Sequence record: PZ445527.1
Origin: a phage
Length of the DNA: 64,000 bases
Reading direction: 5' to 3' (one strand)
In this document: piece after piece, positions 2,774-48,611 of the stretch
Numbering within the stretch: the stretch's first letter is position 1
Layout of the letters: each line of letters begins with the position of its first letter
Notes under the pieces: model-generated
What the model saw: only the letters and a program-made list of their open reading frames with translations
Databases searched by the model: none
What the model was told of the DNA's origin: nothing
Position numbers and translations under genes: made by a program

Positions 2774-3446
2774 ATCTGCGATCCCTTATAATGTAATAAG
2801 TTTGCCGCCGATAGACTTTAAGATATACCCAATTTTTAAAGAGCGCGGCGGTAAACTTCCCGCCGTGTAGTTCGTCATTGCCGCCCTACGAGATAAATAA
2901 TAACAAATGCCAAAAATGGCGCAACCTTATTTTTGTAAAGAAACGTAAAGAAAGCAAATACTCGCACCGCGTCCGGCGATTGCCCAAGTTTAAAGGAAAC
3001 GGGCGCGCGGATACCATAAAATCCAGCAGATAGGCAAGTAATTTTTTCATTTATATTTGCCTTGCCCTACTTGATTTTTCTAGAATCCATCAGGTGACGA
3101 TAAACGGGCTATCCCTTTATGATGGGATACCTGAAAAATTTACCTCGTTGTAGGACGTTTTAGGCCGCTTATTTTCGAGTTAACAAATATTTAACAAAAG
3201 CAAAATTGAAAAATAGTTGTAAAAGGTATTGACTTTTAAAAATCAAGATTAAACGAGTTATTTTATAAAATTAATTAATTGACTTTTATTTGTTGTTGTG
3301 TACTAGAAAGATAGCAGACTAATAATTACTAGAATGATAATCATGCTGGTGGATTGTAACAGCCTGAACCATTAGCAGACTACTAATTCCGGAAAATCTC
3401 ATTAGCCAACTAACTATTTCCTGAGTTATAATATAAACATAAATTA

Positions 3447-3610
3447 ATGAGAAATAATAACTATAAAAATAATCACCATTATAATAATAACTATAAAAAT
3501 AATAACTATAAAAATAATCGCCATTATAATAATAATTATAAAAATAATCGCCATTATAATAATAACTATAAAAATAATCACCATTATAATAATAACTATA
3601 AGAAACTATC
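3447..3610. repeat. about 4.5 tandem copies of a 30-bp AT-rich unit (aataactataaaaataatcRccattataat)
   Basis: Direct reading of 3456-3590; copies differ at 1-2 positions, one half-copy inserted. Confidence 0.85.
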
Positions 3611-3639
3611 GGTCTAAGTGAGAATCACTATCATTTAAG

Positions 3640-3721
3640 TTATTCACAAAGTTATCCACAGCACAAAATGATTTGACACGATAGGCGGCGATATAAGGGC
3701 TTATCCACAGACTTATCCACA
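3640..3721 (+). promoter_or_regulatory. cluster of four DnaA-box matches (ttattcaca 3640-3648; ttatccaca 3652-3660, 3701-3709, 3713-3721)
   Basis: Matches to DnaA box consensus TTATNCACA, three perfect TTATCCACA. Confidence 0.6.
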
Positions 3722-3731
3722 GGTTTTCCTA

Positions 3732-3747
3732 CTGTATAAATATACAG
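3732..3747. promoter_or_regulatory. LexA (SOS) box-like palindrome CTGTATAAATATACAG
   Basis: CTGT-N8-ACAG with AT-rich spacer, flanked by ta...gg; immediately downstream of DnaA boxes. Confidence 0.55.
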
Positions 3748-3963
3748 GGTAAAAAGGTAGTGTTAACGACTGCAATCAATTTTAAGCGGCCTAAATCGCT
3801 TTCTAACGAGCTAAATGATGCGGGGTAATATTAAAGTAAAGCCTCCACCCGTTGCCCTGGGTGAAGGGTATTGATATTTCTACTTTTACCGTTAACAACG
3901 AAAACGAGTAATAATTAACCTAATGTAAAGTTTTGTAAAGGTCGCCATAATCGGTGGCTTTTT

Positions 3964-3972
3964 TGTTATAAT
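3964..3972 (+). promoter_or_regulatory. candidate extended -10 promoter (TGtTATAAT) for the small-gene cassette
   Basis: TATAAT at 3967-3972 with TG at -15/-14; weak -35. Confidence 0.3.
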
Positions 3973-4031
3973 GCCCCTACACCGTTTGAGGACGGTTGAA
4001 AATTTTCCCAAAAAAATTTTGGAGGCTTAAA

Positions 4032-4262
4032 ATGGTTGCGTATTCTTCTTCTGACGCTCTTTTCACTGGAAAAGGCTGGGTATCAAATCGCTGGATCATT
4101 CAAGAAATGGTGCGGGAGTTCGGCATTGCTAAAACTTACACTACCATTCAGGCGCTTTATGATAATGATCAAATCGATCAGCAAACGGCGGGCTTTTTGC
4201 TGGATACCCTGAAGGCGGAACATTGTACTAAAAAACAAGCCGCCAAAATTGCTTTAATGTAA
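4032..4262 (+). CDS. hypothetical protein (about 76 aa)
   Basis: ORF track frame 3996..4262; start moved to ATG 4032 preceded by GGAGG at 4021-4025. Confidence 0.5.
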   Translation: MVAYSSSDALFTGKGWVSNRWIIQEMVREFGIAKTYTTIQALYDNDQIDQQTAGFLLDTLKAEHCTKKQAAKIALM

Positions 4263-4270
4263 CTAATAAC

Positions 4271-4289
4271 GGGGCGTTATTTTCGCCCC
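4271..4289 (+). terminator. GC-rich stem-loop (ggggcg-ttatttt-cgcccc), possible terminator
   Basis: Perfect 6-bp GC stem right after stop at 4262; no clear U-tract. Confidence 0.35.
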
Positions 4290-4310
4290 ACTAACTAGGG
4301 GGGAATGAAA

Positions 4311-4457
4311 ATGGTTATTTTTCGATCAATTCTGGCGGGTATCTTGGGCGCTGTTTTATCACTTTTTGCCATAGCTTTCGGCGTTCACGCGGTTATTGTT
4401 GGCGCGGGTATCGCCGTTTTTTCTTATTTGCTGGGCTGCATGAGTAAAGGGGAATAA
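4311..4457 (+). CDS. small membrane peptide (48 aa)
   Basis: ATG at 4311 after gggggga; hydrophobic sequence MVIFRSILAGILGAVLSLFAIAFGVHAVIVGAGIAVFSYLLGC; below ORF track size cut-off. Confidence 0.45.
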   Translation: MVIFRSILAGILGAVLSLFAIAFGVHAVIVGAGIAVFSYLLGCMSKGE

Positions 4458-4459
4458 AA

Positions 4460-4672
4460 ATGATCCGCAACGTTTCTCTTGCTCGTTCGAAAGGCTTTAA
4501 GCTGGTGGACGTTAACACGTTCGAGCGGGAAGATTGTAAAATTGAATATATAGCACGGAATAAAAACGCCTTCCGTGTTACTGAAAAGAAATTCGATAAG
4601 CGCGGCAACGTGATCGCTGAAACGGTTAGACACTTTGCCACCTTTTACGCGGCCTTTCGTGGGGTACTATGA
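4460..4672 (+). CDS. hypothetical protein 70 aa
   Basis: ORF track; aagggga upstream; start overlaps previous stop. Confidence 0.5.
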   Translation: MIRNVSLARSKGFKLVDVNTFEREDCKIEYIARNKNAFRVTEKKFDKRGNVIAETVRHFATFYAAFRGVL

Positions 4673-4794
4673 AAAGCGTTGTTATTGTTATCCTTGCAAT
4701 GGTTGGCGGTTTTACCGCCACCTTATTTAAGAATGATCCCCTTTCATTGGGGATTTTTATGCTTTTATCTGGTTACCTGATTGGGAGGTTATAA
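4669..4794 (+). CDS. small membrane peptide (41 aa)
   Basis: ATG at 4669 overlapping previous stop (ctATGa); hydrophobic MKSVVIVILAMVGGFTATLF... Confidence 0.4.
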   Translation: MKSVVIVILAMVGGFTATLFKNDPLSLGIFMLLSGYLIGRL

Positions 4795-4795
4795 A

Positions 4796-5140
4796 ATGGT
4801 AATTTATGAAGGCAATCGCTTTGTTACTAATTGCCGCCCGGCATTGTTAGCAAACTACTTAAACCAGCTTTCTCCTGAATATAAGGGCGTTGTTAATATT
4901 TACGAGGGAAAAGCGCATTATAAGATTAATGCGGTCGTTGCCCGTGAACTAGCGTTTCAATTTTTGACCTTTGCATCTTGTGATATTCAGGTCATGGGGG
5001 AGGCGTTAATCGCAGAAAATGAAAATGATTTTATTAATATTTTTCGCAAAGTATGCACCGAGCGCCTGATAATGAAAGGCGCATATATTCAATCCACTGC
5101 GGATAGTATTGAAACAGCGTTTCGAAAGGTGGCACAATGA
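4796..5140 (+). CDS. hypothetical protein (114 aa)
   Basis: ORF track frame 4781..5140; ATG 4796 preceded by GGGAGG. Confidence 0.5.
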   Translation: MVIYEGNRFVTNCRPALLANYLNQLSPEYKGVVNIYEGKAHYKINAVVARELAFQFLTFASCDIQVMGEALIAENENDFINIFRKVCTERLIMKGAYIQSTADSIETAFRKVAQ

Positions 5141-5155
5141 AATTATATATTTTCG

Positions 5156-5434
5156 TTGGTAATAGTAAGGCAGCTAATGATTCCGCTGGGGGCGATAACG
5201 TTCGCCACTATTGGCAAAAATATATTTACTAGGGTTATTATGAGCAATAAAATTATTATAACTAAAACTACCACAATGGTAGACGTTTTTTACGTGCCCG
5301 ATACGCCGGAAAACCGGCAAGCGGTCGAGCGGGGTGATTATGGTAGCGTTATTTATGATGCCGATGGCTATTATCGGCATTTGGTCGATTCCTATGGGGA
5401 AGAGGAGAAGATCACGCATCGACTACCAGACTAA
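5156..5434 (+). CDS. hypothetical protein, start uncertain (possibly internal ATG near 5240)
   Basis: ORF track; acidic C-terminal half; followed by a GC hairpin at 5441-5470. Confidence 0.35.
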   Translation: MVIVRQLMIPLGAITFATIGKNIFTRVIMSNKIIITKTTTMVDVFYVPDTPENRQAVERGDYGSVIYDADGYYRHLVDSYGEEEKITHRLPD

Positions 5435-5469
5435 TAATAACGGGGCGCAACTATCAGGGAGTGCCCCCA

Positions 5470-5516
5470 ATTCTCAAATGAGAATCATTCTCAAATGAGA
5501 ATGATTCTCATTTGAC
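5470..5516. repeat. imperfect palindromic repeats built on tctcaaatgagaatCattctca
   Basis: Direct reading; same aatgagaat motif family recurs at 5840-6030. Confidence 0.7.
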
Positions 5517-5707
5517 CGCGCCCGCGATGGTTAGCCTGCTAATGATTAGGGTGTTACGTGTCGCCTTGTGTGATCGTTAGCTCGCTAACTAATTTTCAAG
5601 CCTCCTCCAATTTTGCCCTTGTTTTAGTATCCCCGCCAAAATTAAACGCGTTAGAATGCGATTCAGGACGTTTTAGCGGTATATTAGAATTATTCACTGC
5701 ATAGGAA

Positions 5708-5727
5708 TACTGTATAAATATACAGTA
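5708..5727. promoter_or_regulatory. LexA (SOS) box, 20-bp consensus-like tACTGTATAAATATACAGta
   Basis: CTGT-N8-ACAG with TA flanks; second copy of the 16-mer at 3732-3747. Confidence 0.6.
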
Positions 5728-5747
5728 GAATAACCTGGGGATAAGTC

Positions 5748-5817
5748 TGTGGATAACGCTTCAAAATGGCTAGGATTCTGTCAAGTCAAATCGTGCTGTT
5801 GATAAGTCTGTGGATAA
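5748..5817 (-). promoter_or_regulatory. two DnaA boxes in inverted orientation (tgtggataa at 5748-5756 and 5809-5817), each within gataagtctgtggataac
   Basis: Reverse complement of TTATCCACA; the 18-bp context is the inverse of cttatccacagacttatcc at 3700-3718. Confidence 0.6.
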
Positions 5818-5839
5818 CTTAAATAACAGTGTTTCTCAC

Positions 5840-6030
5840 TTCCGTTTTTAAATGCGAATCATTATCATTCGTATTCCACTATCTAACCGATAATCATTCC
5901 ACTTTTTAAATGAGAATCGTTTCACTTCTTGAATAGTTCTCATTCCCTTTCTTAAATGCGAATAATTATCATTCGCATTTCACTTTTTAAATGAGATTGA
6001 TTCTCATTATCATTCGCATTCAGGCGAGCA
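5840..6030. repeat. cluster of degenerate repeats (ttttaaatgMgaat / tcattatcattcg units)
   Basis: Direct reading: at least 4 copies of ttttaaatg[c/a]gaat and 3 of (t)cattatcattcg. Confidence 0.65.
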
Positions 6031-6050
6031 GGGCAATTGCCCTGCGCTTT

Positions 6051-6653
6051 TGTGCAAATCCGACATCTGCTCCAAGGGTTACGTGCTGGCGTGTATGTGC
6101 AAATCCGACAATTTTTGGTAGTGTGCAAATCCGACCCGAAAAATTTTTATAGTGTGCAAATCCGACGACGAATCTGTCTCCCAAAAACTCCAGCAATCAC
6201 GAACTGCGTTCGAATCCTGTGGGATATGTGCAAATCCGACATGGTTTTTCTAGGATTAAGATGTGCGAATCCGACAAGATTTTTGTGACTTCGATTGAAG
6301 GGTGTGTGATTGTGTGGGTTTGAGGAGAAGATGAGAGAGCGAGAGAAATTTTGGGACTAGAAGGATGTGGGCGCAGGATTGGTGCGGAGCACCTGATTTG
6401 CGGGGATTTTGGGGAAGATGTGGGATAATTTGGGAAGATTTGAGATAGGTGCAGAAAAAGTGAAATTTTATTAGCAAAATGGGGCAAAATAGCTTGACAA
6501 GTGAAAATTTCTGTGGCTCTAAAAACTCAGGCAATCATGGGCCTTCGGCCCGAAATAATGCTGCTATTTTCAGGAGAGTAGGAGTTCCTAAAAACTTAGG
6601 CGTTTGTGCAAATCCTACCATAAATTTCTAGAATATCAATGTGCAAATCCGAC
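6051..6653 (+). repeat. iteron-like array: 8 dispersed direct copies of TGTGCAAATCCGAC (6051, 6106, 6122, 6153, 6227, 6263 variant, 6605 variant, 6640)
   Basis: Six exact 14-mers plus two 1-mismatch variants, all same orientation, in non-coding DNA. Confidence 0.85.
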
Positions 6654-6689
6654 AGTAATTTCTGGAAATGTGTTTTCGAAAAATGTCTC

Positions 6690-6790
6690 CTAGAAATAAC
6701 CGCCCTCCCTATAACCGCCCTATATTAACCGCCTATTGCTAGAGTTTCTAGGAACAATGAAAACCGCCTGAGTTGACTAAAGTTTTCATA
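6690..6790 (+). repeat. four copies of a short aaccgcc(c/t) motif
   Basis: ataaccgccct, tataaccgccct, attaaccgcct, aaaaccgcct within 100 bp. Confidence 0.5.
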
Positions 6791-8153: not shown

Positions 8154-8765
8154 TTAATCCTTTTTACTTTCGTTAATAACAGCCCCTAATGCTTCCATAA
8201 TTGCATCTTCTAAACTTCCATGTTTATCAGGATTGCTTAAGTGAATAGTATAAACAGAATTCCTAGAAACTCCAGAGTCCGCTGGTGCTACGCTTTTCAT
8301 GTCAGATTCAAAAGCTTCTTGAGTATGTTTCAATTGTACAGAAGGTCCATAATCTTCACCAACTCGGTAGGACTGATTAGACGACAGTGTACCACCACAT
8401 GGAACATTGTGCAAATCCGACGTTATTTTAGGGCTGTTCCACATTGTAATTGGCCCTGACTGCCACGGATCTCGAATAGTCACAGGAGTACTAGGACGGT
8501 TAACCTCAGTCTTCACAAGTTTATAGCCAGCATCGATTAGTGTATTAATTAGATTATCAGCTGGGATGCGAGCTTTGCCAAAGATCTTACGAGCGTTGTT
8601 GAGCCTACCTTCAAAATCTTTACATGCTTTAATATTAGTGTGCGCAAAGGTTAGCTTCATAGATTTGAACTGTACAGTGGCAGTTAAATCTTTAAAAGCA
8701 TAATCCCACGTATTCAGTTCATGATCTGGTACTACTTGAATAGATTGCTGTGCATATAAAGTCAT
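8154..8765 (-). CDS. hypothetical protein 203 aa
   Basis: ORF track; contains one copy of TGTGCAAATCCGAC at 8408-8421. Confidence 0.6.
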   Translation of the reverse strand: MTLYAQQSIQVVPDHELNTWDYAFKDLTATVQFKSMKLTFAHTNIKACKDFEGRLNNARKIFGKARIPADNLINTLIDAGYKLVKTEVNRPSTPVTIRDPWQSGPITMWNSPKITSDLHNVPCGGTLSSNQSYRVGEDYGPSVQLKHTQEAFESDMKSVAPADSGVSRNSVYTIHLSNPDKHGSLEDAIMEALGAVINESKKD

Positions 8766-43175: not shown

Positions 43176-46100
43176 TTATAAGGTGCAGCCACCTGAAGAA
43201 CATCCTGTAGTTTCTCCAGCTCCTCCACCATTCGCAGTGTTAAAGTTAGCATAATACCAGGTTTTTATACCATACTTAACCGCAGTCATAAAGTCACGAA
43301 CTACTACTGGGCCAGGGATGATTTCATTCTCGAATTTAGAGTAATCATAATACATCTGGAAACTTGATGACTGACTCAAGAATTTTTGGTAAACGGCGTT
43401 CCACTTGATCCACTCAATACGATCTACATCATAGGCCAGTTTATAGCTCATGAGAGTATCCCAATCAGTTGCACCTGGGGCAATTGCAATTACTTTATTC
43501 ACTGCACTACCCTTGATAGATACAATCTTACGAGGTGGTTCAATAGAGTTAGTAACGCCTAACAGAACAGAGGAACTTTCTCCCGGCATCTGCGCAGTCA
43601 GAACAGAGTTACGCATACCGTATTTCAGAATGTCTGCACGCAGAGATTCCCAATCCATTTCTAGACCTACGGATACCAGCTCATCAACAGTTTTCTTATA
43701 CGTGTCGATTACCAGAATTCCTTTGGATGGTTTAGTACGATTAAACCATTCACATGCACCTTGTTCTTTAGCCAGACGTACAGAGGCTTTATGTAGGAAG
43801 TAAGACAGTTTTTCAGCTTCACGATGAATCCAGTTACGTGCTTCAACGCCTTCATAAGCCAAACCTTCCGCCGCCATTGCACCTGCTGCGTTCATCAGAC
43901 CAATACCAACATTACGACGTTTCTTAGCCGTATATTCCATAGTTGGGAACGGATAATCCTGAATTTCAATGATGGTATCAACGAATTTCAGGAGGATGTA
44001 GCAAGTTTTCTCCCACTCAGCCAGAGATTCCATGCGTCCTAGTACAACACCACCTAAGTTACACAGAGATACTTCACCAATATCCTCTGGCTTCATTTGA
44101 TCAAGCTGCTCTTTTGTCTTATACAGCTCTGTGATATGATGGAACGGGCGTGTAGGCTGAGTAATTTCTACACAGTTACCCGCTAAAATGCCATTAAATA
44201 CACCTAAGTTTAATTTAGGTTCTGTAAAGCAATAAGTATCACTAATACGACCAGTAAACTCAACGTTAGTTACAGTTACAAAACGGGTTGCGTCTCTATT
44301 GGGGCGTGTTAGGTTTAAGAGTTTCTCTTTATCCAAAGAGAGTCCTAAATCTTTAAGTTTCCAGAAGCCACTACTCCCCACAATAAGCCTACTAGTCTCC
44401 TTGCAGTGGTATAGTTTACTAGTACCAGTACCATCTGGTAACTCGTGGTCACCTTCTTTGCGTCCTAAAATAATCTTGCTAGTAACCCCCAATTCTAGTA
44501 ACAAATCCTTCACTTTACTTAGAAAATCAGGCTCTGCCGAAGCAACCACAATACTAGGAGTTGTGCCATTTTTCTGTATGCAGCCATCTGCATCTAAATA
44601 TCCCTCTAACCATTTGATACGGCTATCAATAGTATACTCTGGGCCAGGTACAAAATACTTCGGCATTAAATCAGACTTAACAATATAGCTCAGTCTACCT
44701 GTGCTGTCCAGTAATCCACTTCCCTGAATTTCTGCGTCAATTTTATCCACTAATGGTAGTTTGCCACCTTTTTCATAGAAGTACAGCTTAGGTTCTCCAT
44801 GTCTTCCATAAGTTCCATCTCCAGTGAAGAAACCGTTAGTATAAGGAGATTTTAGTACCATATTTCCATGATCTACAATAGGATTACTAAATTTAGGCAT
44901 TTTCATACCTACTTGCAAGTCTACTGCTCGTACCTCTTCTAGCCCCTGTTTGAAAGAGGTACGACGATCCTCTCTGACATATTTGGGCTGGTGGTAGAAC
45001 TTATGATAAAGAGTAGATTCAATAGTAGATCCATCAGAGAATGTGATTTTTATCAACTCCTGAGCTTCCCCAGTTTTAGTAGGGATAACTGTTGACCATT
45101 CTTGTCCGTTCCAAATCTCTACTTCTTTACCAACTAAATCAATAATCTCTATGTTACCATTTTTGGTTAAAATTTTTGTTTCTGGAGCTACACAAAGGTT
45201 TGTCATACGGATTGGATCAAGGAAGTTACCGTGACGATTAGATTCCCCGATGTGGTGCGCATACATACGTCCTGTTTCCATTCGGATACGTAGCCAAGTA
45301 TCTAGGATTTCTTTTGCAGAGACTTTAGGAGCTGCTGGAACTGTTTTTCCTTCGTGGTCGATCTTTGTAAGAGATGCCACACGTTTCTCCGCTGCCACGT
45401 AGATTTCTTCAAATTTAGCCTCGTCATCACTATAAAACGCTTCATGAACTTCTGGAGCATAGAAGTATGACATTAGCGTAATATCTTCATTTTTCAGATA
45501 ACGTTTTAACAAAAGATTGTTGAAGCTCAGAGAATAATCCATCTTATCAATTTTATTCTCGTCTGTAGCACGTTGTTGCTTAACCTGCATCAACTGAATG
45601 ATTTCAGGGTCAAAGTATGGATAAGACACTGTAGCAGAACCACCACGAGTTTGCTGAGTATTGGCCTTTACTGAGCGATCAATGTGTCGATAATATGGCA
45701 GTTTTCCGGAATGCGGGAATGCCCCATTTCGCACCGGATCAGCAATTGATCTGCTTTCAAGATGATACCCGATTCCCGCTCTGGCTGCAACCATTTTGAA
45801 GACGATGTGCTCGGCGGTGTCGATTGAATCCAACGTGTCAGTGGAATCCACGAGGCAGCAACTAGCAAATCCACGGTCACTAGAGCGCAGACCAACCAGT
45901 GGCGGCGTAGGAACGTTGATTTTGTGGAGCGACATTGCGTTGTAGAGGTCGATTGCATCTAGAATTGTCCAGTTAGGTTGAGATAACATCGCCATTGCCA
46001 TACCCATGTAGGCAAACTGCGGAGTTTCATAAATTTCACCAGTGGCTATGTTGCGGCGGGAATACTTATCAAAGAACTGCTTCAGTCCACCACTAGTAAA

Positions 46101-46523
46101 AAGACGGTCACGATCATGGTCGATAACCTGATTCAGAGCTTCAAATTGCTCATCGGTAATCCATGCACTCATGTCTTCCCATGCACCTACGCTAACCATG
46201 TGGTCATGGAAGAAGCGCAGAGAAGGTGGTTCGAAGGAATCATAAAGGCGTTTACGCATTTGCGCAAGACGTAATTCCTTTGCTGGCACATCGTATGCTG
46301 GGTTATCTTTGATAAGGCTTTCAGCAGCCTTAATTAATGCGTCCATCAGAGTGTCGGAATCTACAACCCCTTTAGGCAGAGTTTTTTGAGCAGCCATAGT
46401 AATGGCTGACCAACTTACATCAACTGTTTTGCAACCATACTCTGCCCAACCATTGAGTTTTTCAGGAGCAAAGTCTTCTACAGTACCGTCACGTTTAATT
46501 ACTTTTTCAATGCGATGGCTCAT
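43176..46523 (-). CDS. nrdA: ribonucleotide reductase class Ia large subunit (NrdA) containing a 340-aa intein
   Basis: ATP-cone start MSHRIEKVIKRDG (ORF track start trimmed to ATG 46523 behind a consensus promoter and SD), catalytic-site motif TNLC...VEI interrupted by intein; extein about 776 aa. Confidence 0.9.
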   Translation of the reverse strand: MSHRIEKVIKRDGTVEDFAPEKLNGWAEYGCKTVDVSWSAITMAAQKTLPKGVVDSDTLMDALIKAAESLIKDNPAYDVPAKELRLAQMRKRLYDSFEPPSLRFFHDHMVSVGAWEDMSAWITDEQFEALNQVIDHDRDRLFTSGGLKQFFDKYSRRNIATGEIYETPQFAYMGMAMAMLSQPNWTILDAIDLYNAMSLHKINVPTPPLVGLRSSDRGFASCCLVDSTDTLDSIDTAEHIVFKMVAARAGIGYHLESRSIADPVRNGAFPHSGKLPYYRHIDRSVKANTQQTRGGSATVSYPYFDPEIIQLMQVKQQRATDENKIDKMDYSLSFNNLLLKRYLKNEDITLMSYFYAPEVHEAFYSDDEAKFEEIYVAAEKRVASLTKIDHEGKTVPAAPKVSAKEILDTWLRIRMETGRMYAHHIGESNRHGNFLDPIRMTNLCVAPETKILTKNGNIEIIDLVGKEVEIWNGQEWSTVIPTKTGEAQELIKITFSDGSTIESTLYHKFYHQPKYVREDRRTSFKQGLEEVRAVDLQVGMKMPKFSNPIVDHGNMVLKSPYTNGFFTGDGTYGRHGEPKLYFYEKGGKLPLVDKIDAEIQGSGLLDSTGRLSYIVKSDLMPKYFVPGPEYTIDSRIKWLEGYLDADGCIQKNGTTPSIVVASAEPDFLSKVKDLLLELGVTSKIILGRKEGDHELPDGTGTSKLYHCKETSRLIVGSSGFWKLKDLGLSLDKEKLLNLTRPNRDATRFVTVTNVEFTGRISDTYCFTEPKLNLGVFNGILAGNCVEITQPTRPFHHITELYKTKEQLDQMKPEDIGEVSLCNLGGVVLGRMESLAEWEKTCYILLKFVDTIIEIQDYPFPTMEYTAKKRRNVGIGLMNAAGAMAAEGLAYEGVEARNWIHREAEKLSYFLHKASVRLAKEQGACEWFNRTKPSKGILVIDTYKKTVDELVSVGLEMDWESLRADILKYGMRNSVLTAQMPGESSSVLLGVTNSIEPPRKIVSIKGSAVNKVIAIAPGATDWDTLMSYKLAYDVDRIEWIKWNAVYQKFLSQSSSFQMYYDYSKFENEIIPGPVVVRDFMTAVKYGIKTWYYANFNTANGGGAGETTGCSSGGCTL
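44175..45194 (-). mobile_element. intein (340 aa) with LAGLIDADG homing-endonuclease domain, inserted at the NrdA catalytic Cys
   Basis: Starts with Cys (CVAPETKIL) right after TNL, ends ...ILAGN followed by +1 Cys (CVEITQP), restoring NLCVEI; LAGLIDADG-like blocks FFTGDG and LEGYLDADG. Confidence 0.8.
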
Positions 46524-46561
46524 TTGGTTTTCCTTTTTATAGTTATCAGGATTTAAGGAAT

Positions 46562-46590
46562 ATTCTACATTATTATTGGTCATTAGGCAA
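46562..46590 (-). promoter_or_regulatory. sigma70 promoter for nrdA (TTGCCT-17-TAGAAT)
   Basis: Minus strand; followed by AAAAGGAAAA SD and ATG at 46523. Confidence 0.6.
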
Positions 46591-46667
46591 ATAAAATTTT
46601 CTGATAGAAAAGGCCCGAGTATTTTCATACCCAGGCCCTCTGTGTTGTCAGTCTAGTTTTTGGCCAC

Positions 46668-46865
46668 TTAAGTTCTCAGCAGAATATCTATCGAGGTACT
46701 TAGTTCACTATAATTGAAGGGCCGATTTGGATTTGAGGTTACAATTTTCCACGCTAGGGTAGTCTTAGGACTTTCTTCCCCTTCCTTACGTGTAATCATA
46801 TTAGCAGCGCTCAGTGAAGTACGATGTATTTTAGTTTTTCGGTGTAGATGTACAACGTCTCCCAT
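46668..46865 (-). CDS. hypothetical protein (about 65 aa)
   Basis: ORF track 46668..46934 trimmed to ATG 46865 with GGGAAGG SD to remove overlap with phoH. Confidence 0.35.
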   Translation of the reverse strand: MGDVVHLHRKTKIHRTSLSAANMITRKEGEESPKTTLAWKIVTSNPNRPFNYSELSTSIDILLRT

Positions 46866-46866
46866 A

Positions 46867-47628
46867 TTACACCTTCCCCATGTCTTTAAAAATATCGTAG
46901 AATGCTTTAGACTCAGCAGAACGAACGTTATCAATTAATTCGATCATTGAGAATGGAGCATTTTCATATTTCTCATAAACTTCCATAAGAAGTGCTAGAC
47001 CTGAGTCACCTTTAATGTCTTTCTGAGCTATATCCCCGCAGATAATCAAACGGCAGTCTTGTCCTACACGAGTTAGGAGACAAACCATTGCCTCAACGGA
47101 AATATTCTGAGCTTCATCGACAATTACATAGGAGTTGTTGAAAGTTCTGCCACGAGCATGTTCTATAGCCAAAAATTTAATTTTCTGACGTTCGACATAT
47201 CCCTTATAGGCATGATCACCGATGGCCCATTTCATACCATCAGCTATTGGCTCCAACCAAGGCTCTAGCTTTTCGGCTAGATCACCAGGAAGCATACCAA
47301 GAGACTTACCTAGAGGTTCATTAGGACGTACGAGAATCACTTGCTCAATATCTGAGTGAATGTCTACGAGTTCCTGAGCTGCAAGAACGGACGGAATAAA
47401 GGTTTTACCAGTACCTGGCTCACCGATACCCACAGTCACTGTGTTGTTCTTGATCATATTGATATATGATTTTTGCTCGCGGTTTTTACCTACTAGGGAT
47501 TTAGCAACTGGGTTAGCGTAATCATTAGAAAAATCAGCCTGAATTACGTTATTCTCATATTTGTTGCCACGCTTTCTTGAACCATTGCGGTTCTCTCTTT
47601 TTTGACGTGCTTTTCCCATAAATAACAC
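46867..47628 (-). CDS. phoH: PhoH-like ATPase 253 aa
   Basis: Walker A GEPGTGKT and PhoH-family blocks. Confidence 0.85.
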   Translation of the reverse strand: MLFMGKARQKRENRNGSRKRGNKYENNVIQADFSNDYANPVAKSLVGKNREQKSYINMIKNNTVTVGIGEPGTGKTFIPSVLAAQELVDIHSDIEQVILVRPNEPLGKSLGMLPGDLAEKLEPWLEPIADGMKWAIGDHAYKGYVERQKIKFLAIEHARGRTFNNSYVIVDEAQNISVEAMVCLLTRVGQDCRLIICGDIAQKDIKGDSGLALLMEVYEKYENAPFSMIELIDNVRSAESKAFYDIFKDMGKV

Positions 47629-47694
47629 TCCTATAGTGTACTTCGCTTCTAACAGAGGATCAACAAAAGATCTTGTTTATCAACTTACAAATAT

Positions 47695-47723
47695 ATTATA
47701 CCAGTATATACAGTAAAAAGCAA
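47695..47723 (-). promoter_or_regulatory. sigma70 promoter (TTGCTT-17-TATAAT) for phoH
   Basis: Minus strand consensus. Confidence 0.7.
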
Positions 47724-47895
47724 CTACAATTTTAAATAAGCCTATGATATTGCATTTAAATAAAAAATTTGCTTGCTTATAGAGGTAGAAATATGATACT
47801 AGATAATCATTTATTTATATGTAAAAATACTATGCTGTATAGCATCAATAAAAATTGATAAAAATCAAAAGTCAAATAGTATTAGAAAAATGTAG

Positions 47896-47924
47896 TTGAC
47901 GTATGGGGTGGAATTATGTATAAT
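47896..47924 (+). promoter_or_regulatory. sigma70 promoter (TTGACG-17-TATAAT), first rightward promoter
   Basis: Near-consensus, AAGGAG SD and ATG 47946 downstream. Confidence 0.7.
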
Positions 47925-47945
47925 ATGTGAATTAAGGAGAATTTA

Positions 47946-48611
47946 ATGGTAAGAAAGAAAATAACTACAGAAGATGTGAACTTAGCACTTGCTCCCAGAG
48001 GAATAATTATGCTAAGCACGTATATATCAGCTAAATCCAATGCTATATTTAAGTGCTCTAATGGGCATAGTTGGGAGGCTAGAGTAGATAATGTAAAAGG
48101 TGGGAGAGGTTGCCCTTATTGTGCTAGTCGTACTTTAGATCTTAAAGAGGTAAATGAATCCTTAGCTGCTCGTGGAATAAAGATGGAAGGTAAATACATC
48201 AATTCTAAGAGTAAAATTATGTTCAGCTGTGAGAATGATCATAGGTGGGAGTCTACCCTTGATAGTGTTAGAAATCATAATTCTGGTTGTCCTATATGTT
48301 TATTAGAGAAGGATAATTATCCTACTAACGTATATATTTTAGTAAGTAGTATGGGAACCAAAATAGGGATGTCTAGCAGAACTAAAGATAGACTCAGAGA
48401 TATTAAAACTTCTTCTAACATACATGATTTAAAAATATTTAAGGAATATAGCTTTTCAGATAGATCAAAAGCTGTGCGTATTGAAAGAGAAGCCCATTTA
48501 CAGTTTAAGGAATATAATTGTCAGTACAAAGATTTTGATGGTGCTACAGAATTTTTTAGTATTGAGCCAGAAGTAGTAGCAAGGTTTATTGAGGAAATAA
48601 TTAATGAATAA
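47946..48611 (+). CDS. zinc-ribbon repeat + T5orf172 (GIY-YIG-related) domain protein 221 aa
   Basis: Two C..GH.W....G.GCP.C repeats (CSNGHSWEARVDNVKGGRGCPYC; CENDHRWESTLDSVRNHNSGCPIC) and a KIGMSSRTKDRLRDIKT segment. Confidence 0.6.
   Translation: MVRKKITTEDVNLALAPRGIIMLSTYISAKSNAIFKCSNGHSWEARVDNVKGGRGCPYCASRTLDLKEVNESLAARGIKMEGKYINSKSKIMFSCENDHRWESTLDSVRNHNSGCPICLLEKDNYPTNVYILVSSMGTKIGMSSRTKDRLRDIKTSSNIHDLKIFKEYSFSDRSKAVRIEREAHLQFKEYNCQYKDFDGATEFFSIEPEVVARFIEEIINE

Follow-up and report, generated by a model that had tools for sequence, protein, structure and literature searches.

A hypervariable AT-rich minisatellite in the divergent control region of the first-step-transfer DNA of a T5-like phage

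The window analyzed here is a stretch of 64,000 nucleotides of phage DNA (record PZ445527.1), which by its sequence belongs to a T5-like phage (Tequintavirus, Demerecviridae). Hundreds of Tequintavirus genomes matched it at 82-94% identity. The phage collection, IMG/VR and the metagenomes contained no genome exceeding 95% identity, the best phage record reaching about 94%. Searches for plasmids matching the window gave no hit, and a plasmid origin was rejected on this ground. Position 1 of the window aligns to position 2136 of T5, and the tandem array described below therefore falls within the long terminal repeat, which constitutes the first-step-transfer (pre-early) DNA.

To the left of the array, homologues of A2, T5.007, T5.008 and T5.009 are encoded on the minus strand, and to its right homologues of T5.012 to T5.016 are encoded on the plus strand, its neighbours being A2, small pre-early proteins and a T5.014-type endonuclease. 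Since a leftward pre-early block lies on one side and a rightward block on the other, the array falls into the non-coding gap between the two (3051-4031, about 1 kb), and its location, in the terminal repeat and between the divergent pre-early blocks of a Tequintavirus, is of the T5 type. In T5 two genes interrupt the gap, hegG for an HNH endonuclease and T5.011; neither is present in the window or in DT57C. The features of the region are listed in table 1.

Table 1. Positions of the array and of the features around it in the window
Feature	Position	Strand	Basis or remark
Last gene of the leftward pre-early block, T5.009-like; left bound of the gap	2886..3050	-	phrog_17446
Left arm of a 34-nt inverted repeat, 79% complementary; right arm 3783-3816	3138..3171		repeat searches
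Motif ATTAGCMRACTA, three copies (3310, 3371, 3401)	3310..3417	+	6 hits vs 0.67 expected
'Headless' early-type promoter core, left of the array	3427..3452	+	matrix from 16 early promoters
Tandem array, ten 15-bp units (about five 30-bp dimers)	3452..3601		Tandem Repeats Finder, direct reading
Degenerate last unit GAAACTATCGGTCTAA, then GTGAGAAT	3602..3625		conserved in every array-bearing relative
IRC-spacer-IRD arm of a 132-nt inverted repeat	3616..3747	+	alignment to the partner arm; Davison description
First gene of the rightward pre-early block, T5.012-like; right bound of the gap	4032..4262	+	phrog_5145
Partner arm IRD'-spacer-IRC', four DnaA or DnaA-like boxes	5710..5841	-	part of the presumed injection stop region

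Two further observations concern the gap itself. A hairpin followed by six T residues, terminator-like, was seen at 3937-3962 and is directly followed by an extended -10 sequence, TGTTATAAT (together window 3937-3973), which stands before the T5.012-like gene; the hairpin-T6 looks like the T5.011 terminator, retained after the loss of T5.011. No GATC occurs across the 1-kb non-coding gap (window 3050-4032).

Tandem Repeats Finder and direct reading gave ten head-to-tail units of 15 bp, 150 bp in total. Tandem Repeats Finder returned three overlapping readings of the array, with a period of 15 (10.0 copies over 3452-3601, score 167), of 30 (3.5 copies over 3498-3601, 95% matches, score 194) and of 45 (3.3 copies over 3452-3601, score 195), and a separate repeat search returned 11 in-register copies spaced 15 bp. 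Read in the 5' to 3' direction, the order of the units is A B A A B A' B A B A, where unit A is (A/T)AATAATAACTATAA and unit B is AAATAATC(A/G)CCATTA. The array can be described as four 30-bp A-B dimers, the first followed by an extra A and the last by a closing A; the total length corresponds to 5.0 x 30 bp. The preliminary description of this DNA, made from the letters alone, had placed a tandem repeat of about 4.5 copies of 30 bp at 3447-3610. The repeat itself was confirmed by Tandem Repeats Finder and by direct reading. Its limits proved too wide by a few bases at either end, 3447 being the start codon of a spurious ORF; the copy number was close, although the underlying period is 15 bp and the extra A interrupts the 30-bp register at one point.

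The G+C content of the array is 12.7%, and its plus strand consists of 57% A, 30% T, 11% C and 1% G. Internal variants are present (CGCC versus CACC, and AATTAT). With up to two mismatches allowed, the A 15-mer had seven matches in 64 kb, compared with 1.05 expected, and six of these seven were inside the array; for the B 15-mer there were four matches (0.39 expected), all inside the array. None of 100 shuffles reached the observed count of either 15-mer, so the array is not a product of chance. No dispersed copies of the unit were found within the 64-kb window by the 15-mer scan, and the unit variant specific to the window was absent from IMG/VR and metagenome contigs. The array is a tandem repeat far beyond chance that varies in number among relatives, i.e. 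a minisatellite.

The right flank of the array is formed by one arm of a long inverted repeat, the sequence at 3616-3747 being 77% complementary to that at 5710-5841, 1962 nt away. The structure IRC-spacer-IRD / IRD'-spacer-IRC' was described for 25 T5-like phages by Davison (bioRxiv 10.1101/866236), who proposed that the inverted repeat is part of the injection stop signal and acts via membrane-bound DnaA, and who noted that the DnaA boxes of these phages resemble oriC. The text of that preprint mentions no tandem AT-rich array. In the window, the IRC-IRD arm has DnaA boxes at 3640-3648 (TTATTCACA), 3652-3660, 3701-3709 and 3713-3721 (TTATCCACA), which lie 38-120 bp to the right of the array, with 38 bp between the end of the array and the start of the first box. 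Three of the four are perfect TTATCCACA boxes. Each arm contains two pairs of boxes, 3 bp apart, and all five perfect boxes of the 64 kb are inside the two arms. The T5-type arrangement was therefore found here as well: IRC-spacer-IRD adjoins the array, its DnaA boxes are paired, and the inverted partner is close to the injection stop region. The array together with the DnaA boxes is enclosed by the arms of the shorter, 34-nt inverted repeat, which, going by the Davison description, is probably IRB/IRB' of the T5 nomenclature.

A repeat cluster of the injection stop type was detected around the partner arm (window 5470-6021). It includes a perfect 20-nt palindrome (arms 5474-5493 and 5496-5515) and a 23-bp tandem array, ATTCCACTTTTTAAATGAGAATC x 4.1, at 5873-5967. 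The motif AATGAGAAT recurs in this cluster and at both edges of the AT-rich array. Homology between the AT-rich array and the 23-bp arrays beside the other arm was considered and found no support, the alignment showing homologous sequence only from AAGTGAGAA inward and none in the arrays.

To the left, the array is adjoined by a box with a -10 sequence TATAAT (3427-3432), followed by ATAAA and then by CATAAATTAATGAGA, and lacking a -35 sequence or an upstream A-block. The TATAAT-N5-CATAAATTAATGAGA combination is common to about 20 early promoters of the window, which lie on both strands between 12558 and 61834 and share an architecture of about 70 nt: AAAAATTtAtTTGCTt, 17 nt, TATAAT, atatt and CATAAATTgatGAGAG. 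Among them are clear homologues of promoters that we take to be P-N25 (57868, plus strand) and P-H207 (37704, minus strand) of T5. A matrix was built from 16 of the early promoters of the window, and 127,848 positions were scored. The -10 and downstream half of the box at 3427-3452 ranked 13th-15th of all positions, while its upstream half (-35/A-block) scored -16.5, compared with a minimum of 15.9 in the training set; it was the only one of the top 21 matrix hits without an upstream half. The box thus has the -10 and the discriminator/initial transcribed sequence of the early class, as in promoters of the P-N25/P-H207 type, within the 26 bp left of the array, but lacks their TTGCTT-type -35 and A-block.

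The box was conserved in all relatives examined, including T5 (TATAATAACTGCATAAATTAG). No promoter is annotated at the equivalent position in the T5 or BF23 records, and the known pre-early promoters P-H22, P-D/E20 and P11 look unlike it. If the box fires, the start would be at about 3439, and the array would then occupy roughly +14 to +163 of a rightward transcript. The last of the three ATTAGCMRACTA copies (3401) supplies a weak -35-like sequence, TAGCCA; one more copy of this motif, inverted, occurs at 5527-5543 on the minus strand, near the other DnaA-box arm. Two candidate leftward promoters were also noted on the minus strand. The one at 3353-3361 has an extended -10 (TGTTACAAT), and a leftward pre-early promoter was predicted by the BF23 authors at the equivalent of this site; the other, at 3739-3766, reads TTAACA-16-TATATT. 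The possibility that the 30-bp unit is itself a multiplied promoter core was rejected: four TATAAT sequences within the array fit a loose pattern, and none is among the 40 best matrix hits.

The slot that holds the array was compared among about 30 relatives (GenBank phages, IMG/VR contigs and metagenome contigs; 27 distinct variants), and was measured between the conserved sequences TATAAT-N5-YATAAATTA and AAGTGAGAA-CACTATCATTTAAGTTAT. Slot lengths of 2, 34, 50, 64, 66, 94, 96, 127, 143, 144, 169, 173 and 184 nt were found, with 2 nt in T5-type phages, 169 nt in the window, 173 nt in DT57C and 184 nt in Kenya-K44; the slots of three metagenomic contigs measured 34, 66 and 156 nt. These lengths correspond to 0, 1, 2, 3, 5, 7, 8 or 9-11 units of 15 or 16 bp each, T5 having no unit and BF23 three. 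The suggestion in the preliminary description that copy number may vary was thus borne out between related phages, at one and the same slot.

The units are alike within one phage and different between phages. In Kenya-K44 the array is A-only, with about 11 near-identical units; dimers of 31 bp (GAAATCATCACCAGTATAATAATAACTATAA) occur in L012 and L040, and L044 has 30-bp dimers like those of the window. The arrays of DT57C and DT571/2, which are closely related, are identical. Such lineage-specific homogenization indicates concerted evolution, with repeated expansion and contraction. The slot is bracketed by a short direct repeat, TTAATGAGAAAT on the left and CTAAGTGAGAAT on the right, and T5 has a single hybrid, TTAGTGAGAAA, in place of this pair, a pattern in keeping with slippage or with deletion between such short repeats. 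The main series of lengths (2-34-66-96-127 nt) increases by two units per step, or about three helical turns. Dimer-wise slippage alone may account for this series. The promoter core and the DnaA boxes might also be constrained to a helical phase, which is not statistically secure: the phasing is suggestive at the level of variants but not at that of length classes, of which only six out of 12 are in phase, and the sequences lack independence.

By nearest-neighbour calculation, no duplex of the 64 kb is less stable than the array, whether at 50, 100 or 150 bp. Over 150 bp its stability was -0.975 kcal/mol per step, compared with a mean of -1.28 (sd 0.064), which is about 4.8 sd under the mean stability. 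Curvature was calculated with a wedge model (parameters of the Bolshoy-Trifonov table) and was uniform and moderate along the array, with a mean of 27 degrees (window mean 16, sd 8.4) and a peak at the 96.7th percentile, while a phased A-tract control gave 83 degrees. The DNA bending proposed in the preliminary description therefore receives modest support, the modelled curvature being well under that of the most curved sites, and a strong intrinsic bend was rejected. Neither RNA nor DNA folding of the array went beyond that of shuffles (z = +0.82 and -0.79), and a permissive Rfam scan of 2800-6700 returned no known RNA family, only a chance-level match elsewhere.

The divergent control region of the first-step-transfer DNA carries, in this array, a hypervariable minisatellite that is AT-rich and non-coding. 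It is probable, by a margin short of confidence, that the array originated by slippage, is dispensable, and acts at most as a tunable and easily melted spacer. It occupies one fixed slot, with the conserved -10/initial-transcribed box on its left and the IRC-spacer-IRD DnaA-box cluster on its right, and would grow and shrink by replication slippage or by unequal recombination between the 15-16-bp units, mostly by two units at once (30-32 bp). This process may have been seeded by the short direct repeat TAA(T/G)TGAGAA on either side of the slot. The array would have no sequence-specific function, and its dispensability is suggested by the natural variants. Physically, it would separate the pre-early control elements from the DnaA boxes by 0 to about 170 bp of DNA that melts very easily, is rich in A and is moderately curved. 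Some constraint on the slot is possible, since nearly every phage that is not of the T5 type keeps at least one unit and since the first and last units are conserved, and the length classes of about three turns could reflect selection for rotational phasing, not dimer-wise slippage alone. A further point against a plain spacer, suggestive by analogy, is that the least stable duplex of the window lies 38 bp from four DnaA boxes, which resembles a replication origin.

Several other explanations of the array were weighed against this spacer reading. That it encodes a small repeat protein is extremely improbable. ORFs are indeed present on both strands, one of 56 aa on the plus strand (3447-3617, MRNNNYKNNHHY...) and one of 46 aa on the minus strand (3444-3584), and one GenBank record, that of DT57C (L001, 3365-3559), annotates a CDS, a 'repeat completion protein', over its own array. 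However, the ATG has no Shine-Dalgarno sequence before it and is missing in several relatives, units of 16 bp run the reading frame into stop codons, and base composition alone leaves four of the six frames open. Coding was therefore rejected, with neither frame nor ATG conserved and no PHROG match for either ORF or for the DT57C ORF. Most records leave the region unannotated. Short ORFs are also annotated over the slot in L037, L041 and L042, as 'hypothetical protein'; these and the DT57C ORF are very likely spurious, and no use of the term 'repeat completion protein' was found in the literature. The array as an assembly artefact, or one with a mis-estimated copy number, is very unlikely. Its 150 bp are about one short read in length, and copies could have been collapsed or inflated; against this, the same architecture occupies the same slot in more than 20 independently assembled relatives, and the internal variant units provide unique anchors for assembly. 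A protein-binding array, also anticipated in the preliminary description, found no support; a sequence-specific, iteron-like one, for a pre-early protein such as A2 or for the host nucleoid proteins H-NS, IHF or Fis, appears improbable. The regular spacing of 15-16 bp, the core AAT(A/C)(A/G)T(A/C)AC that recurs in the units of many phages, and the gene for the A2 DNA-binding protein, 1.5 kb away, would agree with it, and AT-rich, TpA-rich curved DNA is a generic substrate of H-NS. Iteron arrays such as those of P1 oriR, lambda ori and pSC101 likewise consist of direct repeats near DnaA boxes and AT-rich DNA. Their units, however, are of 17-22 bp and in helical phase, whereas those of the present array are contiguous, 15-16 bp long and variable in sequence. 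In addition, no Rep-type or other initiator gene lies nearby, no unit copies occur elsewhere in the 64 kb, the unit sequence drifts freely between phages, the array is absent from T5, and no match to the IHF consensus was seen in the array by eye.

Two readings would give the array a part in regulation. It might be part of a transcribed leader or A-rich non-coding RNA that tunes expression in the manner of a contingency locus, with transcription starting rightward at 3427-3452 or reading through leftward from about 3739-3766. The level of pre-early expression would then depend on the length of the array, by way of pausing of sigma-70 at the repeated TATAAT, of RNA stability, or of Hfq or S1 binding to the ten AAYAAYAAC tracts. 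The -10 and initial-transcribed half of the box, which ranks among genuine early promoters and is conserved in the relatives examined, argues for such a leader, as do the hairpin and T6, which could end the transcript, the promoter-like site on the minus strand at 3766-3739, and the ten (ARN)3 tracts, one per unit (2.7 in shuffles). This count is, however, a trivial by-product of repeating one unit. An upstream half far below that of every real early promoter, the dissimilarity to known pre-early promoters, the missing annotation in T5 and BF23 and the lack of RNA structure beyond shuffles also speak against it, and a leader function seems rather unlikely. Alternatively, DnaA bound at the IRC-IRD boxes might open or distort the array, as at an unwinding element of oriC, and this would aid the anchoring or pausing of the first-step-transfer DNA envisaged in the DnaA model of Davison, or provide an auxiliary origin, with copy number tuning the opening. 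The four boxes nearby, the confinement of all perfect boxes to the two arms, the lowest duplex stability of the window at all three scales, and the likeness of AT-rich repeats beside clustered DnaA boxes to oriC, which has been noted for the boxes, are consistent with this reading. Yet T5 and several relatives keep the boxes without the array, and neither GATC nor a 13-mer consensus is present. Relative to the DnaA boxes, the array is also on the wrong side when compared with the DUE-R1 arrangement of E. coli oriC. In the bacterial module of DnaA box and DnaA-trio (PMC8287927), the spacer is at most 16 bp, usually 10-13 bp, compared with 38 bp here, and a DnaA-trio module was rejected for this misfit in spacing and side; what the array shares with that module, or with the 13-mer DUE, is an AT-rich tract of low stability beside consensus DnaA boxes. 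According to Davison (10.1101/866236), mapping has put the origins of T5 close to the centre of the genome, and first-step transfer takes place before the replication genes have entered the cell. In favour of the reading, a second first-step-transfer band near IRC is reported in the literature cited there. On account of spacing, side, motifs, absence from T5 and origin mapping, the array was not filed as an origin element, and an oriC-like role is considered unlikely. The fuller proposal, by analogy, of a copy-number-tunable unwinding element that would form an oriC-like module with the IRC-IRD boxes in the first-entering DNA, where DnaA-driven opening would hold or pause the incoming genome or give an auxiliary origin, and where length would tune this step between lineages, is doubtful to a greater degree.

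The array shares its place, between the leftward and rightward pre-early genes, with T5 Repeat Regions 1 and 2 (Davison, 10.1101/866236), and abuts IRC. The preprint lists inverted repeats, palindromes and direct repeats, T5 itself being without a tandem array, and describes the Repeat Regions as highly conserved, whereas the array reported here is hypervariable. Among unrelated viruses, a report on monkeypox virus (PMC10101126) describes 16-nt variable-number repeats in the inverted terminal repeats, which are alike in their short AT-rich units, their position in a non-coding terminal repeat and their copy number differing between lineages. The virus and the sequence are unrelated and no functional link is implied; the array of the window, moreover, is dimeric and lies beside DnaA boxes. 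The array was absent from the literature searched, and as a type of feature it is ordinary.

These findings are useful mainly for the annotation and typing of T5-like phages. The array explains spurious ORF calls such as the 'repeat completion protein' of DT57C and several 'hypothetical proteins', the slot is a spot where short-read assemblies of these phages may mis-count, and array length is a simple marker for telling isolates apart. The preliminary description lacked the context of the array, namely T5-like first-step-transfer DNA in which the array is flanked by a promoter-type box to its left and by the published inverted repeat of DnaA boxes to its right. New details are the hypervariable AT-rich slot directly beside a highly conserved DnaA-box inverted repeat, and the conserved early-promoter core without a -35 next to it. 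Both belong to the first-step-transfer control region, the role of which in the unsolved mechanism of two-step injection is still debated. If the array cooperates with the DnaA boxes, the natural variants with 0-11 units would be a ready series for studying the DnaA model of the injection stop.

Two minor observations were made away from the array. Nine copies of TGTGCAAATCCGAC (up to two mismatches), all on the plus strand, were found at window 6051-6653 and at 8408, and correspond to the DRD direct repeats of the right end of the T5 terminal repeat and the injection stop region. In the region of about 46000-48000 the sign of the GC skew switches from negative to positive, at about 48 kb, which probably marks a change in the direction of transcription.
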